19,748 nucleotides of DNA from IMG/VR virus record IMGVR_UViG_647533161_000006; one strand, written 5' to 3'. The stretch comes from a virus. Its lineage: Duplodnaviria > Heunggongvirae > Uroviricota > Caudoviricetes. Position 1 is the first letter of the stretch; each line of letters begins with the position of its first letter. The notes under the pieces were generated by a model. It was given only the letters and a program-made list of their open reading frames with translations. It searched no databases and was not told the DNA's origin. Shown here one piece after another: positions 3,358-18,736 of this stretch. Position numbers and translations under genes: made by a program.

Positions 3358-3926
3358 NNNNNNNNNNNNNNNNNNNNNNNNNNNNNNNNNNNNNNNNNNN
3401 NNNNNNNNNNNNNNNNNNNNNNNNNNNNNNNNNNNNNNNNNNNNNNNNNNNNNNNNNNNNNNNNNNNNNNNNNNNNNNNNNNNNNNNNNNNNNNNNNNNN
3501 NNNNNNNNNNNNNNNNNNNNNNNNNNNNNNNNNNNNNNNNNNNNNNNNNNNNNNNNNNNNNNNNNNNNNNNNNNNNNNNNNNNNNNNNNNNNNNNNNNNN
3601 NNNNNNNNNNNNNNNNNNNNNNNNNNNNNNNNNNNNNNNNNNNNNNNNNNNNNNNNNNNNNNNNNNNNNNNNNNNNNNNNNNNNNNNNNNNNNNNNNNNN
3701 NNNNNNNNNNNNNNNNNNNNNNNNNNNNNNNNNNNNNNNNNNNNNNNNNNNNNNNNNNNNNNNNNNNNNNNNNNNNNNNNNNNNNNNNNNNNNNNNNNNN
3801 NNNNNNNNNNNNNNNNNNNNNNNNNNNNNNNNNNNNNNNNNNNNNNNNNNNNNNNNNNNNNNNNNNNNNNNNNNNNNNNNNNNNNNNNNNNNNNNNNNNN
3901 NNNNNNNNNNNNNNNNNNNNNNNNNN
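3358..3926. other. Run of 569 N (assembly gap or masked sequence)
   Basis: Directly visible in the sequence; interrupts the 5' end of exo and most of bet. Confidence 1.
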
Positions 3927-4039
3927 CACCCTTTAAATGCCGTCTGGCGAAGAGTGGTGATCAGTTCCTGTGGGTCGACAGAATCCATGCCGACACGTTC
4001 AGCCAGCTTCCCTGCCAGCGTTGCGAGTGCTGTACTCAT
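3927..4039 (-). CDS. bet: Lambda Bet (Red beta) ssDNA-annealing protein, N-terminal 37 codons only; remainder in the N run
   Basis: ATG at 4039-4037; MSTALATLAGKLAERVGMDSVDPQELITTLRQTAFKG matches the lambda Bet N-terminus. Confidence 0.88.
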
Positions 4040-5991: not shown

Positions 5992-6300
5992 TCATCTCGC
6001 CGTCAGTTGTTTTGATTTCCGGTAGCCTGCCGCGTAAATAGCTACGTTTGGCAGGCAAACACTTCCACTGCATTCATCTACTTTCTTGCAGCGAAGGCTT
6101 CCGAGTGATATTGCTTTTTCAGAAAGGCTTAACCGCTTTCTCGGGTCTTCCTGAACAGGTTCCTCACTGTCTGTGCCGAAGATCGAATCGATGATGTTGC
6201 AGATGGAATCACGCTCGATGGCCAGCTTTCTGCGCCGCTCATGACGGCGAGTTTTGGCATTTCCTGCAAATGTTGATTTTCCGTACACGATTACCGTCAT
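5992..6300 (-). CDS. N: N-type transcription antiterminator, P22 gene 24-like, 102 aa from ATG at 6300
   Basis: Arginine-rich motif GNAKTRRHERRRKLAIER near the N-terminus (MTVIVYGKSTFAGNAKTRRHERRRKLAIERD…) matches the P22-type N ARM. The ORF-track entry starts 28 codons upstream at a non-ATG start. Confidence 0.82.
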   Translation of the reverse strand: MTVIVYGKSTFAGNAKTRRHERRRKLAIERDSICNIIDSIFGTDSEEPVQEDPRKRLSLSEKAISLGSLRCKKVDECSGSVCLPNVAIYAAGYRKSKQLTAR

Positions 6301-6418
6301 GATGTTTTCCTCATGTGAAATGGCTTTGGTGGTGATGCGCCAGATGCTGATCTTCTGGTTGCTGTCGTTACTGCTGCAATTCACATCACCCCAAACCCAT
6401 CTCGTTTGGTATCTGTTC

Positions 6419-6453
6419 GCGCTTTGTCAGCGCATCATCGAAGTTAAAGAGCC
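6419..6453 (-). promoter_or_regulatory. nutL: nutL (boxA plus boxB), P22 type
   Basis: Minus strand reads GGCTCTTTAAC (boxA-like) then GCGCTGACAAAGCGC (boxB hairpin, from 6419-6433), the P22-type nutL boxB, about 120 nt upstream of the N start. Confidence 0.72.
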
Positions 6454-6489
6454 TGCCAATCTGTTCCGTTTGGCTGCCAGCGTCCTGCT

Positions 6490-6545
6490 GATGGCGATTA
6501 TAATGAACCAATAGTTCGATATTATCAAGAACTATAAGTACGAAT
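6490..6545 (-). promoter_or_regulatory. Putative pL promoter and oL operator region
   Basis: Minus strand carries TATAAT (plus 6497-6502) and a TTGATA -35-like hexamer (plus 6523-6528) at a non-ideal spacing. Partial dyads (GAACTATAAGTAC, GAACCAATAGTTC) share the AGTAC/ACT..AGT motif seen in the cI-cro operator region. Exact operators not resolved. Confidence 0.35.
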
Positions 6546-6710
6546 TGTTTGTGGTTCATTAACTTAATGAGATATGTTTTTGATATGTAAAGGAATTTAT
6601 TTTTGTAAAGATTGAAGATTGGTCAGTAGGAGAGAAAGAATTGTTTGCTGGCGTGTTAGTTCGTGGGTTAGCACATGTGCGGATGTTAAATAAGGTAGAC
6701 GATCGTGAGG

Positions 6711-6736
6711 AAAAGAAAAACCGGCGCTGAGGCCGG
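6711..6736 (-). terminator. Intrinsic terminator closing the cI/gene-X transcription unit
   Basis: Minus strand reads CCGGCC-TCAGCG-CCGG (GC-rich hairpin) followed by TTTTTCTTTT, a few nt after the gene-X stop codon (6743-6745) and before the putative pL. Confidence 0.55.
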
Positions 6737-6742
6737 GTATAA

Positions 6743-7642
6743 TTATTTGATTATTTCTTTTATAAAGACTTCTTTCGGTTGGTATTTTTTATCTGATGAT
6801 TTGAGCTGGTACGTTATTGTTATATCAGCACGTACAGAAAATTTACCTGCAAAATCTGATGGGTTTACGTTGGGGCCAAGAACCATATTTACTCTTCGAT
6901 CTATTAATCCAGGGATAACAGCAGCCCAACCTTTCTCTGGATTGTCGAGGTCTAATGCACGGATTTCAACATCAACATCAAAATGATCCTGAGTATATGA
7001 CTCTGGTGTGAAGACAACTTCAGTTGGGGCTTTTTTAATGGTTTCAGCGGGAATGGTCACTGTACCACCCCCTGTACCTATGACCATCGTAGATCCTTCG
7101 TCTGCCCTAGCTGGGGCAAGCGTCTTAATGGAACTTTTGGCAAGAGTCTTCTTATTGGTTACCGTGCTTTCTATGATTGCTTGAAGACGGTCAGGTGAAA
7201 TATTAGCCTCACCGGCACCAATATTGATGATTGTATTGTTATTTGCTTCAAAGTGGGAGGTGTTGCTTGGAGCCATAGCCTTAGTTGCTAGAACTAAGCC
7301 ATATCCAACCAGACCAATAACAACAGCACCAACGAGAGCGTTTCTCATTTTCCCATTTCCGATCTTTGCATGAGCGCCAGCAAGAAACTTGTCCATTTCT
7401 TCTTGGCTACCAAAGAGGAGTTTAATAACAATATCTTCATAAAGGCTTCCTGCTTCTAATCGCGCAACATGCACCGATATATCAAGGATATTAGCCCCTG
7501 TCAGTTCCTGCAAAACACCTTCTGATTGTTTTGCGATGGCCTCCCACCCTTGAAGGGAGGTAATCACATCTTTGATGCTTACAGGTTCTTTAGTTGAATA
7601 ATATATGTTTTCGGTAAAGGTTAAAGATAATTCTTGGGACAT
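6743..7642 (-). CDS. Uncharacterised single-pass membrane protein, 299 aa, in the rexAB-equivalent slot
   Basis: Long ATG-initiated ORF (ATG 7642-7640) with a GAGGG SD upstream, co-oriented with and downstream of cI. One hydrophobic segment (NALVGAVVIGLVGYGLVLATKAMA) separates an N-terminal ~100-aa domain from a Gly/Thr-rich ~175-aa C-terminal domain. Visibly AT-rich compared with flanking phage genes; no family recognised. Confidence 0.7.
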   Translation of the reverse strand: MSQELSLTFTENIYYSTKEPVSIKDVITSLQGWEAIAKQSEGVLQELTGANILDISVHVARLEAGSLYEDIVIKLLFGSQEEMDKFLAGAHAKIGNGKMRNALVGAVVIGLVGYGLVLATKAMAPSNTSHFEANNNTIINIGAGEANISPDRLQAIIESTVTNKKTLAKSSIKTLAPARADEGSTMVIGTGGGTVTIPAETIKKAPTEVVFTPESYTQDHFDVDVEIRALDLDNPEKGWAAVIPGLIDRRVNMVLGPNVNPSDFAGKFSVRADITITYQLKSSDKKYQPKEVFIKEIIK

Positions 7643-7771: not shown

Positions 7772-8479
7772 TCATGAACTTTTCAGCCATTCCCTGGCCT
7801 CGATGTCATCTAGGTGGCGAGATTGCTTCAGAATACCAGCTACATACTCCACCTTTGCTACTTGATGATAAGGCAACGTTATTGGCCTGTGGTCTTGGTT
7901 GATGCTTGTAAATTGGTATTCTCCGTCTCTGTCATAGCCAAGAACCTTGATCATGTTGTGCCCTTCAATGGTTCTGACAAACACCTCATCACCTGGGAAT
8001 ACTTTGGTGTTAGGCTCAATGAGTACATATTCTCCTGATTTTATTCTGGGCCACATGCTGTCTCCTTTTACACGAAGACCAAAGGCATCTGGATCATCGC
8101 TATAAATCTTGAGCCACCCATCGCGCTCTTCGGTCATCTCGATGGCACCATCAACACCAAGAATTGCCTCACCAACCACGCGCACTAACCCTTTTTTTAA
8201 TTTGCCAACAATTGAAAAAGTATCTTCATCATTCGCTCCATTTAACGAAGTGCCGTGCTGAAGCCAAACAACATCAACGTTTAGAAATTTCGCAAGCGCA
8301 TTCATTTTTTCCTGGCGTGGTAAAGACTCAGCATTAAACCATTTGCTAACGCCTTTGGACGAAAGAGAAAGGGCACGGGCTATGGCCATTCCCCTACCAT
8401 GTTCATCAAGACCAGCTTCTTTACAGGCTTGCGCTAGCCGCTGGGCGAATTCTTTGCGCACTTTTTCATTCTGAACCAT
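7772..8479 (-). CDS. cI: CI-like prophage repressor (N-terminal HTH, C-terminal S24 LexA-like autopeptidase), 235 aa
   Basis: C-terminal domain contains GDSMWP (Ser nucleophile motif of S24 peptidases) and a downstream Lys; N-terminal region is HTH-like. Divergent from cro across a short operator region. Not lambda CI or P22 C2 by sequence. Confidence 0.85.
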   Translation of the reverse strand: MVQNEKVRKEFAQRLAQACKEAGLDEHGRGMAIARALSLSSKGVSKWFNAESLPRQEKMNALAKFLNVDVVWLQHGTSLNGANDEDTFSIVGKLKKGLVRVVGEAILGVDGAIEMTEERDGWLKIYSDDPDAFGLRVKGDSMWPRIKSGEYVLIEPNTKVFPGDEVFVRTIEGHNMIKVLGYDRDGEYQFTSINQDHRPITLPYHQVAKVEYVAGILKQSRHLDDIEAREWLKSS

Positions 8480-13454: not shown

Positions 13455-13832
13455 ATGCGTGATATTCAGATGGTTCTTGAGCGTTGGGGAGCGTGGGCGG
13501 CTAATAATCATGAAGATGTGACCTGGTCGTCCATTGCCGCCGGTTTTAAGGGATTAATTCCTTCAAAAGTAAAATCTCGCCCGCAATGTTGTGACGATGA
13601 CGCGATGATCATTTGCGGGTGCATGGCCCGTCTGAAAAATAACAACAGCGATTTGCATGATTTGTTAGTGGACTATTATGTCGGCGGCATGACTTTTATG
13701 GCGCTTGCGCGTAAGCATGGTAGATCTGATTGTTGGATTGGCAGGATGCTCCAAAAAGCTGAGGGCGTAGTGGAGGGCATGCTGATGGTGTTGGATCTCA
13801 GATTGGAGATGGATGCTGATTGTTTGAGATAA
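13455..13832 (+). CDS. Q: Late-gene antiterminator Q (phage 82 / DLP12 QuuD type), 125 aa
   Basis: From ATG 13455 (GGAG SD 8 nt upstream): [76 protein letters not shown]… recognised as 82-type Q. The ORF-track entry starts at an upstream TTG. Confidence 0.82.
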
Positions 13833-13930
13833 TTAAAGGAAAAGTTGCTGTCTGGTTATCATTAGACTAATGTTTCAAATGTTAGAATCGCAACGTAGTT
13901 ATGATCATATAACAGCTTGTTCCCTGATTT
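13833..13930 (+). promoter_or_regulatory. Expected PR' late promoter and qut site region (not resolved to bases)
   Basis: Immediately downstream of Q and upstream of a plus-strand terminator, as in lambdoid late-control regions; candidate -10 TAGAAT at 13883-13888 but no well-spaced -35. Confidence 0.35.
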
Positions 13931-13959
13931 AGCCAGCCTCCCCAAAGGCTGGTTTTTTT
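13931..13959 (+). terminator. Intrinsic terminator (tR'-equivalent) downstream of Q
   Basis: AGCCAGCC-TCCCCAAA-GGCTGG hairpin followed by TTTTTTT on the plus strand. Confidence 0.6.
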
Positions 13960-13987
13960 CTAATAAGTATCAATCCGGTTAGGTATT

Positions 13988-14512
13988 TTATTGTTTGACC
14001 CATAATAGTTCATTGACATTGAATCCCAATTTTTGAGCAGTACGCACATAGTCTGCTTTTACATTATCTGGAATAGTTGGAGTCCGTGCCAGAATCCATA
14101 GGTATTCTCTGTTCGGACCACTGACAAGAGCATACTTATACTCATCATCCAGTTTGATTACATTATAGCCACCATAGAAGGGGCCAAAAAACGAAACCTT
14201 CAACGCTGCAGTTGTATTATCTCCTGTAAAGTATGCTTTACCTTCGCTCTCGCTCCATTTGTTTTTCGTTGGGTCATATCCACGATTAAGTACACTAATC
14301 CCTCCGTCGTTCCGTTTCCCATAAGTGGCGCTGACCTGTTCCAGACCACGTTCAAATCGGTTCTCAAGCCGAGCTATTTCATACCATTTTCCGAGGTAGC
14401 GGTTGGTGTCAAAATTTGTAATCGGCTGCACACCTTTAGGTGGTGTCGGGGCCTTACATGCTATCAGAGTGAAAGAGAGTGCAATGCCAGTCAACACAGG
14501 CCATAACTTCAT
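13988..14512 (-). CDS. Blc-like outer-membrane lipocalin lipoprotein, 174 aa (moron)
   Basis: Signal peptide with lipobox (…FTLIAC) then lipocalin-type sequence (NFDTNRYLGKWYEIARLENRFERGLEQV…KVSFFGPFYGGYNVI…YLWILARTP) closely resembling bacterial lipocalin Blc; opposite strand to the late operon. Confidence 0.85.
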   Translation of the reverse strand: MKLWPVLTGIALSFTLIACKAPTPPKGVQPITNFDTNRYLGKWYEIARLENRFERGLEQVSATYGKRNDGGISVLNRGYDPTKNKWSESEGKAYFTGDNTTAALKVSFFGPFYGGYNVIKLDDEYKYALVSGPNREYLWILARTPTIPDNVKADYVRTAQKLGFNVNELLWVKQ

Positions 14513-14704: not shown

Positions 14705-15664
14705 ATGATAAAAAAACCTGTCGTTGGGATCAGTGGTTGTTTGGCCGGTTCTTCTGTCCGTTTTGATGGTGGTCACAAAAGAGCTAGCTTTTTAATGGAC
14801 AAATTACTGGAATGGGTAACATTCAAACCAGTATGTCCGGAAATGGCTATAGGGCTTCCAGTTCCGCGTCCTGCTCTACGTCTTGTTCGCTCGGCGCAAG
14901 GAAATATACGGATGTGTTTCAGCCACGACCAGAATGAGGATGTTACAGAGAAAATGACAGAGTTTAGTCGTTCTTATCTTGACAAATTAAAGGATGTATC
15001 GGGATTTGTGGTTTGTGCAAAATCTCCTAGCTGTGGTATGGAACGCGTGCGTGTATATGATGAAAATGGTAATCGTGGTCGTAAAGATGGAGTGGGACTA
15101 TTTACGAGCACGTTGATGGAAAGGTTTTCCTGGCTACCGGTTGAAGAGGATGGGCGACTACATGATCCAGTGCTTCGTGAAAACTTTGTTGAAAGAGTAT
15201 TTGCTTTACATGAGCTCAATCATCTTTATAAAGCGAAATTATCAAGAAGGGAATTATTAGCTTTTCATAGCCGTTATAAGCTTCAGTTGTTGGCGCATAG
15301 CCAGGCCGGTTATAAAGAGATGGGGCCATTTGTGGCTGCAATACATGAGTGGGCAGACCTTGAATCATACTTTGAGGTGTATCGTGAGAAGCTGATGGCG
15401 ATTCTCAGAAAACCTGCATCACGTAAAAATCACACGAATGTGCTGATGCATATACAGGGATATTTTAGTAACTGCTTAAATACACGTCAGCGTAAAGAGT
15501 TGAGCGATGTTATACTTAACTATCGAGCTGGCACGCTACCTCTTCTTGCGCCATTAACTTTGCTGAAGCATTACTTGGCAGAGTATCCTGATGATTATTT
15601 GCTTATACAGAATTACTTCCACCCCTATCCTGATGAACTGGCTCTAAGACTCTTGGTGAACTAG
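14705..15664 (+). CDS. DUF523/DUF1722-like two-domain protein (TudS/YbgA-like), 319 aa (moron)
   Basis: ATG 14705 with AAGGGGTAGG SD. N-terminal half has Cys-containing motifs (GISGCLAGSSVRFDGG, PVCPE, CAKSPSCGME) reminiscent of DUF523/TudS-type Fe-S proteins; C-terminal half resembles DUF1722. Family call is from memory, not a search. Confidence 0.6.
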   Translation: MIKKPVVGISGCLAGSSVRFDGGHKRASFLMDKLLEWVTFKPVCPEMAIGLPVPRPALRLVRSAQGNIRMCFSHDQNEDVTEKMTEFSRSYLDKLKDVSGFVVCAKSPSCGMERVRVYDENGNRGRKDGVGLFTSTLMERFSWLPVEEDGRLHDPVLRENFVERVFALHELNHLYKAKLSRRELLAFHSRYKLQLLAHSQAGYKEMGPFVAAIHEWADLESYFEVYREKLMAILRKPASRKNHTNVLMHIQGYFSNCLNTRQRKELSDVILNYRAGTLPLLAPLTLLKHYLAEYPDDYLLIQNYFHPYPDELALRLLVN

Positions 15665-15982
15665 GCGTTTGGAATGCACCAACAAGATGATTTTCTCCTT
15701 AGAGAATGTTTACAATCGTAAAAACTTCACTATGATATCTATAGTTGTACAGTTTGTAAAAAAATTCGGTTCATGCTTAAGGTAATGTTAATATGTTAAT
15801 TAATGATTAATAATCAAGCAAGCCAAAAATAGTTCTGTTTAATCTAGTATTACATAAATATTTTAAAGAAAATATCAAAGTTCATGATGATATAATGAGA
15901 TTTTTCTCATTGAAAATATGGCAATTTTAATATTTCCACCTATACTTACTTAACTCAAATCTAATTATGTCAGGTGGATGGT

Positions 15983-16714
15983 ATGCCATGCATATGTTCT
16001 ATCATTTTGGTTTTGAACTCGTTTGATATCCGGCTTGGTAAAGAAAAAATCTCTCTAAAAAAAGGAAGTGTTGTTGCTATAGAATACAATTTAAAAGTTT
16101 TCTTTTCTTCAAATAAAGATAATATAATGATCGTGGATATTGAAGAGAAAACAGTTAATGACTTCTTTAAAAACAATACACTCTCACCTTTTTCTGTAAG
16201 AAGATTTTATTCAGCATACTTGATAGTAAACTGTACAGACTATTCATTGTTAAAGAACTTGATAGGTTGCTTGAATTGTGATGGTGAAACTACGGCTGTA
16301 GTTAAAAATTCAATATTATTTGCATGTCTTGCTATTTTATCCTCGGAAAAAATGTTTCAGAGTTTTTTGTTTGGGTGTCTTAATAGTTTAGGAAGCAAAG
16401 TTAAGGCTATTATTCACTCGGACATATCTGCAGCATGGAGACTTTGTGATATTTCTTCAAGACTATGTCTGAGTGAAAGTTTGTTAAAAAGAAAACTAAA
16501 ACACGAAGGCTTATCATTTAGCAAATTAATTCTTGAAGAACGAATGGTGATGGCTGAAAGGTTATTAAGCTACAATTTCTATCCTGTTGGGAAAGTTGCT
16601 AAAATATGTGGTTATGAAAGCGCGTCATATTTTATAAGTGTTTTCAGAAGATATTTTGGTGTTCCCCCCCATGAATATTCATCAAGATTTTTTTTAGAAA
16701 AAGGCAAGATGTAA
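15983..16714 (+). CDS. AraC/XylS-family transcriptional regulator, about 243 aa (moron; very AT-rich)
   Basis: C-terminal AraC-type HTH signature (…GKVAKICGYESASYFISVFRRYFGVPPHEY…). In-frame ATG 15983 with AGGTGG SD 7 nt upstream (the ORF-track entry starts at GTG 15974). Preceded by ~300 bp of extremely AT-rich DNA. Confidence 0.75.
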   Translation: MPCICSIILVLNSFDIRLGKEKISLKKGSVVAIEYNLKVFFSSNKDNIMIVDIEEKTVNDFFKNNTLSPFSVRRFYSAYLIVNCTDYSLLKNLIGCLNCDGETTAVVKNSILFACLAILSSEKMFQSFLFGCLNSLGSKVKAIIHSDISAAWRLCDISSRLCLSESLLKRKLKHEGLSFSKLILEERMVMAERLLSYNFYPVGKVAKICGYESASYFISVFRRYFGVPPHEYSSRFFLEKGKM

Positions 16715-16776
16715 CGTGATGCGTTTTGATGATTTTGTAATTTTCATATTTGATGATTATATGATGCTTTCAGCTA

Positions 16777-16807
16777 CGCCAGAATAATCGCTGGCGTTTT
16801 TCTTTTC
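16777..16807 (+). terminator. Intrinsic terminator downstream of the AraC-like gene
   Basis: CGCCAG-AATAATCG-CTGGCG hairpin followed by TTTTTCTTTT on the plus strand. Confidence 0.55.
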
Positions 16808-16881
16808 TAATGTAACTTCTGTATCTTTCCCTCTTTCATTCCAAACCGTGTACACCATCCGTTATTCGCGGAGGTGAGGCT

Positions 16882-17097
16882 ATGAAATCCATGGACAAGT
16901 TAACAACGGGCATTGCCTACGGCACCTCTGCAGGCAGTGCTGGCTACTGGTTTTTACAGTGGCTTGATCAGGTCAGTCCGTCACAGTGGGCGGCGATTGG
17001 AGTGCTTGGAAGCCTTGTGTTGGGTTTTCTCACTTATCTGACAAACCTTTATTTCAAGATTAAAGAAGATAAGCGTAAGGCTGCGAGAGGTGAATAA
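16882..17097 (+). CDS. S: Pinholin S21 (dual-start: antiholin from Met1, holin from Met4), 71 aa
   Basis: [71 protein letters not shown] matches the phage 21 pinholin, including the M-K-x-M dual-start motif; GGAGGTGAGG SD. Confidence 0.9.
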
Positions 17098-17594
17098 TGT
17101 CGCCATCATTACGCAAGGCTGTAGCAGCTGCTATTGGTGGTGGGGCTGTTGCCATAGCGTCTGTGCTCATCACTGGTCCGAGTGGTGACGATGGTCTGGA
17201 AGGTGTCAGCTACATACCATATAAAGATATTGTTGGTGTATGGACTGTATGTCACGGGCATACAGGAAAAGACATCATGCTCGGTAAAACGTATACCAAA
17301 GCAGAATGCAAAGCACTCTTGAATAAAGACCTTGCCACTGTCGCCAGACAAATTAACCCGTACATCAAAGTCGATATACCGGAAACAACGCGCGGCGCTC
17401 TTTACTCATTCGTTTACAACGTGGGTGCTGGCAATTTCAGAACATCGACGCTTCTTCGCAAAATAAACCAGGGCGATATCAAAGGCGCATGTGATCAGTT
17501 ACGTCGCTGGACATATGCTGGCGGTAAGCAATGGAAAGGTCTCATGACTCGTCGTGAGATTGAGCGTGAAATCTGTTTGTGGGGTCAGCAATGA
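17097..17594 (+). CDS. R: SAR endolysin (phage 21 R-type lysozyme with N-terminal signal-anchor-release domain), 165 aa
   Basis: N-terminal weakly hydrophobic Gly/Ala-rich SAR segment ([20 protein letters not shown]) followed by a lysozyme-type domain; start overlaps the S stop (TAATG). Confidence 0.9.
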
Positions 17595-18083: not shown

Positions 18084-18377
18084 TTATTGTGAGCAATAGA
18101 CACGCGCTTCCAGCGGAGTATAAATGCCTAAAGTAATAAAACCGAGCAATCCATTTACGAATGTTTGCTGGGTTTCTGTTTTAACAACATTTTCTGCGCC
18201 GCCACAAATTTTGGCTGCATCAACAGTTTTCTCCTGTCCAATTCCCGAAACGAAGAAGTGATGGGTGATGGTTTCCTTTGGTGTTACTGCTGTCGGTTTG
18301 TTTCCAACAGTAAACGTCTGTTGAGCACATCCTGTAATAAGCATTGCCAGAGCGGCAGAAAACAACATTTTTTTCAT
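18084..18377 (-). CDS. bor: Bor outer-membrane lipoprotein (serum-resistance moron), 97 aa from ATG 18377
   Basis: MKKMLFSAALAMLITGCAQQTFTVGNKPTAVTPKETITHHFFVSGIGQEKTVDAAKICGGAENVVKTETQQTFVNGLLGFITLGIYTPLEARVYCSQ matches lambda Bor, with lipobox LITGC. Confidence 0.9.
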   Translation of the reverse strand: MKKMLFSAALAMLITGCAQQTFTVGNKPTAVTPKETITHHFFVSGIGQEKTVDAAKICGGAENVVKTETQQTFVNGLLGFITLGIYTPLEARVYCSQ

Positions 18378-18736
18378 CTTATTATCCTGCATTGTTAAAA
18401 ACGGCAGAATCCTATGTGACAACAATTAAACGATAGTTAAATGGATTGATGAAAATTAAAACTATATAGGTGGATGCTCAGCCTATTGGAGGAGGGGGGC
18501 ACTCAGAATCCTGTGGAATGAAATAAACCGCTCTTTCTGTCCATTACCCTTTTAGCTGCGCTGTATCGTCGCCGTATTCCCGCATTAACCATGACCGTAG
18601 CCCGACGGGGAATTCCTTCTGCGTGAGTGTGCGGGAATAATCAAAAACGATGCACACCGGGTTTTACTGTGCTGACAGACGCAGGGTTACCCTCATAGTC
18701 GCTTTTCCGGTGCGATGGTGGAAGAAACCGGGATGT

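Follow-up and report, generated by a model that had tools for sequence, protein, structure and literature searches.

The sequence analysed here (19,748 nt; IMG/VR virus record IMGVR_UViG_647533161_000006; the whole stretch is referred to as the window) is that of a lambda-like prophage which, between the antiterminator gene Q and the holin gene S, contains a gene coding for a 243-amino acid (aa) regulator of the AraC/XylS family (hereafter the AraC gene). Q forms the upstream border of this cargo slot, and S, the first gene of the lysis cassette, its downstream border. The Q-to-S cargo slot is best known for stx. An earlier inspection of the DNA by a model that saw its letters only (the sequence-only reading) had proposed that an intact AraC/XylS regulator of about 243 aa occupies this slot; the Pfam scores of the protein, and the coordinates of Q and the holin gene, bear this out. 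Its description of the regulator as cargo of the slot also stood, although not as the sole cargo: genes for a Blc-type lipocalin and for a fused DUF523-DUF1722 protein ('YbgA') lie between Q and the AraC unit, the former being antisense to late transcription. The features of the region are collected in Table 1.

Table 1. Features of the Q-to-S region of the window (positions are those of the whole stretch)
Feature	Position	Strand	Observations
Q antiterminator (PF06530 type, QuuD-like)	13455-13832	+	Pfam Phage_antitermQ 173 bits; antiterminator Q in an identical genome
Intrinsic terminator directly after Q	13931-13961	+	9-bp stem and T-run; -14.9 kcal/mol, z = -4.1; kept in phage IdasGreatGrand
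Blc-type outer-membrane lipocalin, cargo	13988-14512	-	NCBIfam Blc subfamily 315.5 bits (cut-off 267); Pfam Lipocalin_2
Fused DUF523 (2-thiouracil desulfurase, TudS-like) and DUF1722 'YbgA', cargo	14705-15664	+	PF04463 137.7 bits; PF08349 138.8 bits
Very AT-rich spacer	15665-15982		318 bp, 26.7% GC
Promoter-like element (-35 ATGGCA, 17-nt gap, -10 TATACT)	15918-15946	+	Pattern scan, 9/12 matches
Shine-Dalgarno sequence AGGTGG, 5 nt before the ATG	15972-15977	+	Read from the sequence; kept in homologues
AraC/XylS-family regulator, 243 aa	15983-16714	+	Pfam; AlphaFold; dN/dS 0.25; PHROG 1450 over the full length
Intrinsic terminator of the AraC unit	16776-16806	+	ACGCCAG / loop / CTGGCGT, then TTTTTCTTTTC
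S21-type holin (S), first lysis-cassette gene, downstream slot border	16882-17097	+	Pfam Phage_holin_2_1 120.4 bits
Lysozyme	17097-17594		

The longest open reading frame (ORF) for the regulator begins at a GTG codon (15974-16714) and would give a product of 246 aa; the 243-aa form begins at the ATG at 15983. The latter is almost certainly the true start, since it is preceded at 5 nt by AGGTGG, is the start annotated by RefSeq in an identical genome, and yields the M..CS(V/I)I N-terminus shared by the homologues. The 243-aa protein scored 56.8 bits with the Pfam profile HTH_18 (cut-off 33.6) and 47.6 bits with HTH_AraC (cut-off 26.6), which placed an AraC-family double helix-turn-helix at residues 161-237; the string KVAKICGYESASYFISVFRRYFGVPPHEY, quoted earlier for the C-terminal helix-turn-helix, is present in the translation. 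A helical linker joins the beta-strand-rich N-terminal domain of the protein (about residues 1-100) to its double helix-turn-helix domain at the C-terminus (about residues 136-235); the AlphaFold model had a pLDDT of 87 and a pTM of 0.82. The closest solved structures by sequence were the DNA-binding domain of GadX (5e-21), CsvR, Rns and ToxT. The modelled DNA-binding domain superimposed on its GadX counterpart (3mkl; 42% identity) with a TM score of 0.87-0.90 and a root mean square deviation of 1.4-1.7 Å, while Foldseek matched the full-length model to CsvR, Rns and ToxT (E about 1e-10 to 1e-7). This predicted C-terminal domain of about 100 aa, with its two helix-turn-helix motifs, is that which defines membership of the AraC/XylS family. 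Among the PHROGs, the protein falls into phrog_1450, listed as of unknown function.

The sequence-only reading had pointed to some 300 bp of extremely AT-rich DNA upstream of the gene and to an intrinsic terminator of its own downstream, and both were found. The GC content of the spacer is given in Table 1, that of the AraC ORF is 31.3%, and the mean for 300-bp windows is 44.7% (standard deviation 5.8%); spacer and gene together are the only sizeable low-GC island, and the lowest-GC part, of the window. The terminator has a 7-bp GC-rich stem (16776-16797; -12.1 kcal/mol, z = -2.4). It is kept in phage IdasGreatGrand, recurs as GCCAGCATTATTGCTGG followed by Ts after the gene for a 54% identical homologue (locus L009, see below), and was detected by a strict pattern in 65 of the 80 closest IMG/VR loci (76-100% protein identity). 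It is absent upstream of essD in prophage DLP12, the homology of which to the window restarts only after the T-run.

The spacer contains a promoter-like element, with its -10 box at 15941-15946. The 130 nt preceding the start codon were aligned for six sequences (the window, phage IdasGreatGrand, loci L008 and L009, ECs_0287 of E. coli O157:H7 strain Sakai, and phage mEp332), the proteins of which are only 52-83% identical. In this alignment C.TATACTT was invariant, a TGG..A block lay 17-18 nt upstream of it, the Shine-Dalgarno sequence AGGTGG followed, and the distance to the start codon was constant. Among 31 distinct spacers of the close clade (at least 76% identity), the -10 box and the Shine-Dalgarno sequence were likewise the most conserved positions. 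These comparisons provide good support for the predicted promoter at 15918-15946 being real. The spacer otherwise evolves fast, with indels and insertions of insertion sequences (IS) among relatives; its identity to that of IdasGreatGrand is 42-76%, against about 93% for the flanking genes. IS2, IS200C and IS3 were found inserted within the module in some E. coli genomes (matches H82 and H85), and three IMG/VR spacer variants with insertions of ∼1.3-1.4 kb upstream of the AraC gene had spacers of 1670-1745 bp. Such insertions could either de-silence the gene or disconnect it.

Judged from its sequence, the segment from about 15900 to 16810 appears to be a moron in the sense of Hendrix and Juhala: an extra gene with its own promoter-like element and terminator, in a slot that is differently filled in related phages and with a base composition of its own (27-31% GC, against the mean given above). 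That it is a functional moron of the AraC family is very likely.

Selection was assessed by comparing the window with phage IdasGreatGrand, the AraC allele of which is 83% identical at the protein level. The AraC gene had a ratio of non-synonymous to synonymous substitution rates (dN/dS) of 0.25, with 0.30 over its N-terminal 135 codons and 0.15 over the half that codes for DNA binding; neighbouring genes had values of 0.03-0.11, among them the lipocalin (0.08) and YbgA (0.11) genes, both of which are under strong purifying selection. The AraC gene is thus under clear constraint, although it evolves more quickly than the genes beside it. In the IMG/VR sample, 79 of the 80 AraC ORFs were intact (237-248 aa) and one was truncated; the 34 protein alleles represented diverged by up to 24%. 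A pseudogene, which the sequence-only reading had named as what would undo its proposal, is not what these values describe.

The gene is common in E. coli, being present (at least 80% nucleotide identity over at least 80% of its length) in 996 of 5,426 complete genomes (about 18%), 943 of which contain the whole Q-Blc-YbgA-AraC-holin block of 3.7 kb. At least 1,000 contigs have the exact 243-aa protein on record. Counted over the full length, the family is small: 9 cluster representatives reached E<1e-30 in a set of 1.84 billion proteins, and the cluster members are from E. coli plus one E. albertii. A scan of species-representative genomes revealed nothing more than 50% identical outside Escherichia save for one 83% match on a 3.2-kb contig of a metagenome-assembled genome of 'Candidatus Nanosynbacter' (L090, JARKOR010000151.1), which looks like bin contamination.

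The genomic setting of the relatives was then compared. In the close clade, every IMG/VR locus of sufficient length had the order Q (PF06530), Blc (minus strand), YbgA, AraC, holin, lysozyme, such that the linkage of the lipocalin and YbgA genes to this AraC clade was without exception. Two more distant homologues also lie in the slot, unaccompanied by Blc or YbgA: P0013 (62% identical to the window protein) follows a PF03589-family Q and precedes a holin gene, and P0014 (54% identical to the window protein, 84% to PatE) is found between a PF06323-family Q and an S21-type holin. The P0014 locus (L009, gene at 6001-6735) resembles the window in miniature, with Q, a tR'-like terminator, TTGGCA-18-TATACT, the gene, a terminator and a holin gene in succession. 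Since these two homologues are alone in the slot behind other Q families, the AraC unit does not depend on the lipocalin and YbgA genes.

Of 36 loci with genes of the PatE type (96-99% identity; loci L170-L205), 32 had tail-fibre, Tfa or Pin genes before them and the remaining four showed an IS3 fragment alone; an IS3 fragment follows the gene in 31 of the 36. Of 80 IMG/VR loci with a gene of the Psr type (88-100% identity), one lacked a marker, and in each of the other 79 the gene was on the Q-to-holin side: a recognized Q (PF06530, PF03589 or PF06323) was immediately upstream in 59, RusA alone was upstream in 14, and six had only downstream markers (nanS-p or holin). The sequence-only reading had not noted this precedent for the position. 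In prophage Sp4 of strain Sakai the order is Q, a CAAX protease gene, a small ORF, PsrA and tRNA genes. P0014, 84% identical to PatE and yet located in the Q-S slot, indicates that position is not tied to protein lineage. The AraC unit thus relocates between two classic lambdoid cargo sites, of which the Q-S slot in particular regularly houses AraC-like regulators, from several lineages and behind unrelated Q proteins. Other phages, including DLP12, have an OmpC/NmpC porin gene as alternative cargo on the same Q/S backbone.

As suggested in the sequence-only reading, the protein was compared with characterized prophage AraC regulators, the closest of which proved to be PatE, followed by PsrA and, at a greater distance, AppY (Table 2). 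Full-length homology, the M..CS(V/I)I start and a length within the 240-275 aa class (approximately) place it in the GadW/YdeO/AppY/PatE/Psr subfamily, across 13 members of which C5, S6 and F14 are invariant. ECs_0287 has the same first recognition helix (helix 3, SESLLKRKLK) as the window protein; its second helix reads SVSYFTYVFRRYFG where the window protein has SASYFISVFRRYFG. The overall and N-terminal identities to PatE, together with the different prophage slot, mark it as a lineage paralogous to PatE, not as an orthologue.

Table 2. Identity of the window AraC protein to studied members of the subfamily
Protein	Overall	N-terminal domain	DNA-binding domain
Sakai ECs_0287 (taken as PatE)	53% over 235 aa	39%	72%
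PsrA (ecs1087, Sakai Sp4)	40%	28%	56%
GadW	35%	27%	46%
AppY	30-31%	24%	40%
YdeO	28-29%	19%	42%
GadX	39% over the C-terminal half (28% in global alignment)	16%	43%

The functions reported for these relatives are as follows. According to a review (PMC10877973), PatE activates gadB, gadC, gadE and hdeAB; PsrB, which by our alignment is only 37% identical to PatE, likewise activates gadE and hdeAB and shares with PatE its binding element at hdeA. PsrA and PsrB activate gadE and yhiF, with PsrB binding the hdeA and gadE promoters (reviews PMC10877973, PMC8565820); psr genes are, moreover, associated with effector loci and Pch regulators (PMC10877973). AppY induces acid-resistance genes, its own expression depending on H-NS, RpoS and ArcA (PMC10057817). 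The statement of the sequence-only reading that prophage-borne AraC-like regulators modulate acid resistance thus agrees with the literature, PatE, Psr and AppY all being reported, in two reviews and a primary study of AppY, to activate GAD/hdeAB genes (PMC10877973, PMC10057817). The assignment of psrA to ecs1087 follows PMC13502914. RefSeq appears to start psrA too late (195 aa; L169, 28678-29391): from an in-frame ATG located 126 nt further upstream, a 237-aa form is obtained which begins MVVVCSVIMV and fits the conserved N-terminus of the family.

Taken together, these observations favour, as the probable reading, a promoter-gene-terminator moron that codes for a PatE/Psr-like regulator of host genes, which would probably act on the acid fitness island. 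By analogy with the studied relatives, modulation of the host acid-resistance regulon by the AraC protein is itself somewhat better than an even prospect. In a lysogen, the gene would be transcribed from its own promoter, for which the relatives provide support. As this promoter lies in very AT-rich DNA it would probably be bound, and damped, by H-NS. The transcript would end at the terminator of the unit, a hairpin that is evident in the sequence and the predicted action of which would leave the holin, lysozyme and spanin genes silent. The protein would bind AT-rich operators by means of its double helix-turn-helix and activate host promoters, most probably those of gadE and hdeAB; these are the likely targets because the DNA-binding domain is 72% identical to that of PatE and the first recognition helix is the same. 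After induction, a Q-modified polymerase starting just downstream of Q would pass the tR'-like terminator, the cargo and the moron terminator before reaching S. With this layout, the regulator should also rise late in lytic growth.

This last step had been foreseen in the sequence-only reading, which held that late transcription from PR' would have to traverse the AraC gene to reach S. The arrangement supports it. The hairpin directly after Q is presumably the tR'-type terminator of a short PR' transcript and, as such, the barrier to be crossed by a Q-modified polymerase. A promoter pattern scan of the DNA between the AraC terminator and S detected no promoter-like site. Identical DNA is present in isolated phages (see below). 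Since a phage with this layout is viable, a Q-modified polymerase must traverse the antisense lipocalin gene, ybgA, and the AraC gene with its terminator before S; from the layout, we infer that late transcription runs through the AraC gene to S. Two candidate PR' sequences were considered and set aside as unconvincing: TGGAGA-18-GATAAT (13804-13833), a weak match from the promoter pattern scan, and TTGCTG-17-TAATGT (13845-13873), read by eye.

Several observations weigh against a PatE/Psr-like host regulator, or against particular steps of the proposed mechanism. PR', expected within about 13800-13930, could not be placed with confidence, the only candidates, between 13800 and 13875, being weak. 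The protein missed the NCBIfam equivalog cut-offs for YdeO (NF007407, 112.7 bits against 348) and GadX (NF007432, 98.9 against 500), and is therefore no orthologue of either. Its N-terminal domain is just 39% identical to that of PatE, so that signal input and partners may differ. The comparison with PatE, in turn, depends on an equivalence between ECs_0287 and PatE (Z0321) that we infer: ECs_0287 is the sole AraC-type gene of Sakai prophage Sp1, and we take Sp1 to be the Sakai counterpart of CP-933H/OI-8. The patE gene is z0321, located in CP-933H/OI-8 of E. coli O157:H7 EDL933 (PMC10877973). Database names for the 243-aa protein are generic ('helix-turn-helix domain-containing protein', 'araC-type regulatory protein from bacteriophage origin'), and literature searches for the AraC gene or the Blc-YbgA-AraC module found no paper. 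The spacer is a candidate H-NS-bound region on account of its composition; the H-NS high-affinity motif TCGATAAATT (up to two mismatches) had 21 matches in the window, against 26.6 expected, and none in the spacer, a count that neither supports nor refutes H-NS binding. The GAD box TTAGGATTTTGTTATTTAAA (up to three mismatches) had no match in the window, which speaks only against a GAD-box-type self-target of the AraC protein.

Three other explanations for the gene, and one extension of the favoured reading, were weighed. Of the three, the one that survives best, though it remains unlikely, is that the AraC protein regulates only its neighbours, the lipocalin and TudS/DUF1722 genes, the three forming a functional module with no role in a host regulon. 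AraC-family proteins often control adjacent genes, the linkage of the three is complete in the IMG/VR loci of the close clade, and the E. coli genomes that contain the whole block are numerous (943); among the E. coli matches listed, moreover, there was no complete Blc-YbgA block without the AraC gene, the one candidate ending at the start of its record. The relatives, however, tell otherwise: the 62% and 54% homologues, and the PatE-type and Psr-type genes, are all without Blc and YbgA. The AraC unit also differs in composition (31% GC, against 43%) and comes with a promoter and a terminator of its own, and its nucleotide identity between phages (80-90%, against about 93% for the neighbours) suggests a separate history.

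A doubtful alternative, less probable than a local module, is that the regulator serves the phage itself by adjusting either the expression of late or lysis genes or the choice between lysis and lysogeny; the frequent place of its relatives just before the holin gene would follow from this. Three lineages (the window clade, P0013/P0014 and the Psr type) occupy the position between Q and the holin gene, with Q proteins of three Pfam families, and read-through by a Q-modified polymerase would raise the protein at exactly the time of lysis. Yet PatE-type genes lie at the other end of the prophage in 32 of 36 loci (those with a tail-fibre or Pin marker), the occupation of the same slot by unrelated porin cargo fits a permissive insertion site, and the targets reported for PatE, PsrA/B and AppY are host genes (PMC10877973, PMC10057817). 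Nor was any repeated operator-like motif present between the AraC terminator and S; the repeats of the spacer were short two-copy families at chance level, typical of AT-rich DNA.

That the placement of AraC-like regulators between Q and the holin gene has been selected, so as to wire a host-regulon switch to prophage induction, is a speculative extension of the favoured reading to which we give a similarly low chance; in the window clade, the ToxT/Rns-like N-terminal domain might also sense a lipid ligand that the lipocalin inherited with it handles. If true, a regulator of stress and acid genes, raised through read-through by the Q-modified polymerase, would flood the dying cell or, in a population, its induced fraction. 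Least probable of all is a silent, decaying, H-NS-repressed xenogeneic cargo with no current function, since the extreme AT content, the occasional truncated copies (a single IMG/VR locus out of 80, an E. coli genome covering only 56% of the gene, and the 133-aa products P0021 and P0022) and the IS elements within the spacers of some relatives are set against the low dN/dS (above all in the DNA-binding domain), the ORFs kept intact across 34 divergent alleles, and a -10 box and Shine-Dalgarno sequence that are the best-kept parts of a fast-evolving spacer.

The host-regulator reading applies to an active phage. The 3.7 kb around the AraC gene were 99.9-100% identical to the complete phages Lambda_2E9, 1H12 and the Lambda_ev series, which indicates a live temperate phage rather than a remnant. 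In an E. coli chromosome identical to the window (100% over the region tested) the prophage adjoins icd, and its genes are in the order int, xis, exo-bet-gam, kil, cIII, sieB, N, cI, cro, cII, O, P, ren, nin genes, rusA, ylcG, Q, cargo, S, R, Rz and bor/iss, followed by the terminase and head-tail genes.

Outside the Q-S slot, the same phage has a second host-directed moron, a bor-family lipoprotein gene (18084-18425, minus strand) downstream of Rz for which the identical RefSeq genome gives the annotation Iss (increased serum survival). An ORF of 299 aa (6743-7642, minus strand) occupies the position of rexAB, between N (5992-6384, minus strand) and cI (7772-8479, minus strand), near a local low-GC spot at about 6500. 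It had no Pfam match above the cut-off and no PADLOC match, and is possibly an exclusion or defence gene. PADLOC also found no defence-system match for the AraC, YbgA and Blc proteins. The Rfam scan detected no RNA family within the Q-S slot, its sole match in the window being the lambda cIII thermoregulator element (RF01804; 4647-4705, minus strand; 88.5 bits, gathering score 50). A masked run of 569 N (3359-3927) lies within the bet recombination gene, and the ORFs listed across it are artefacts.

Prophage AraC-like regulators such as PatE, PsrA/B and AppY are an established class, into which the window protein fits; two points go slightly further than the sequence-only reading, namely that the allele family is widespread and that several lineages recur in the Q-S slot. 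Current ideas are not overturned, and a known theme is extended to an unstudied allele family that is widespread: the AraC gene, or a close allele of it, is present in roughly one in six complete E. coli genomes, on a phage that is both inducible and transmissible. Should the protein act like PatE, PsrB and AppY, a common temperate phage would alter acid resistance, and possibly other stress or colonization traits, of its hosts. These hosts are commensal and extra-intestinal E. coli, while such regulators have so far been studied mainly in O157:H7 and K-12. More generally, AraC-like host regulators regularly occupy the Q-to-S slot, as promoter-gene-terminator units.

Among the known systems, PatE is the closest studied relative: the -35 and -10 (TATACTT) boxes and the Shine-Dalgarno sequence are shared, and both genes are prophage-borne and AT-rich, although PatE-type genes follow tail-fibre or Pin genes and the window gene is located in the Q-S slot. 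PsrA and PsrB, prophage-encoded secretion regulators of O157:H7, resemble the window protein in being AraC-like regulators, homologous over their full length, encoded downstream of Q in lambdoid prophages. They belong, however, to a more distant lineage with a different upstream region, and psrA is followed by tRNA genes in Sakai Sp4, whereas the window gene is found in E. coli other than enterohaemorrhagic strains, together with Blc and YbgA cargo. AppY, encoded by prophage DLP12 of E. coli K-12, is likewise prophage-borne, belongs to this small subfamily and has the M..CSV motif at its N-terminus, but sits at the far end of DLP12, past tail-fibre remnants. The acid-resistance regulators GadW, GadX and YdeO share the architecture and the subfamily, but are products of chromosomal genes. 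Finally, Rns, CsvR and ToxT, AraC regulators of virulence for which full-length structures have been solved and which also emerged as sequence matches, gave the best full-length structural matches, having a beta-rich N-terminal domain and a double helix-turn-helix; their identity to the window protein is about 20%, the N-terminal domain of the latter is shorter, and a difference in how the two domains are oriented limits the TM score to about 0.4.

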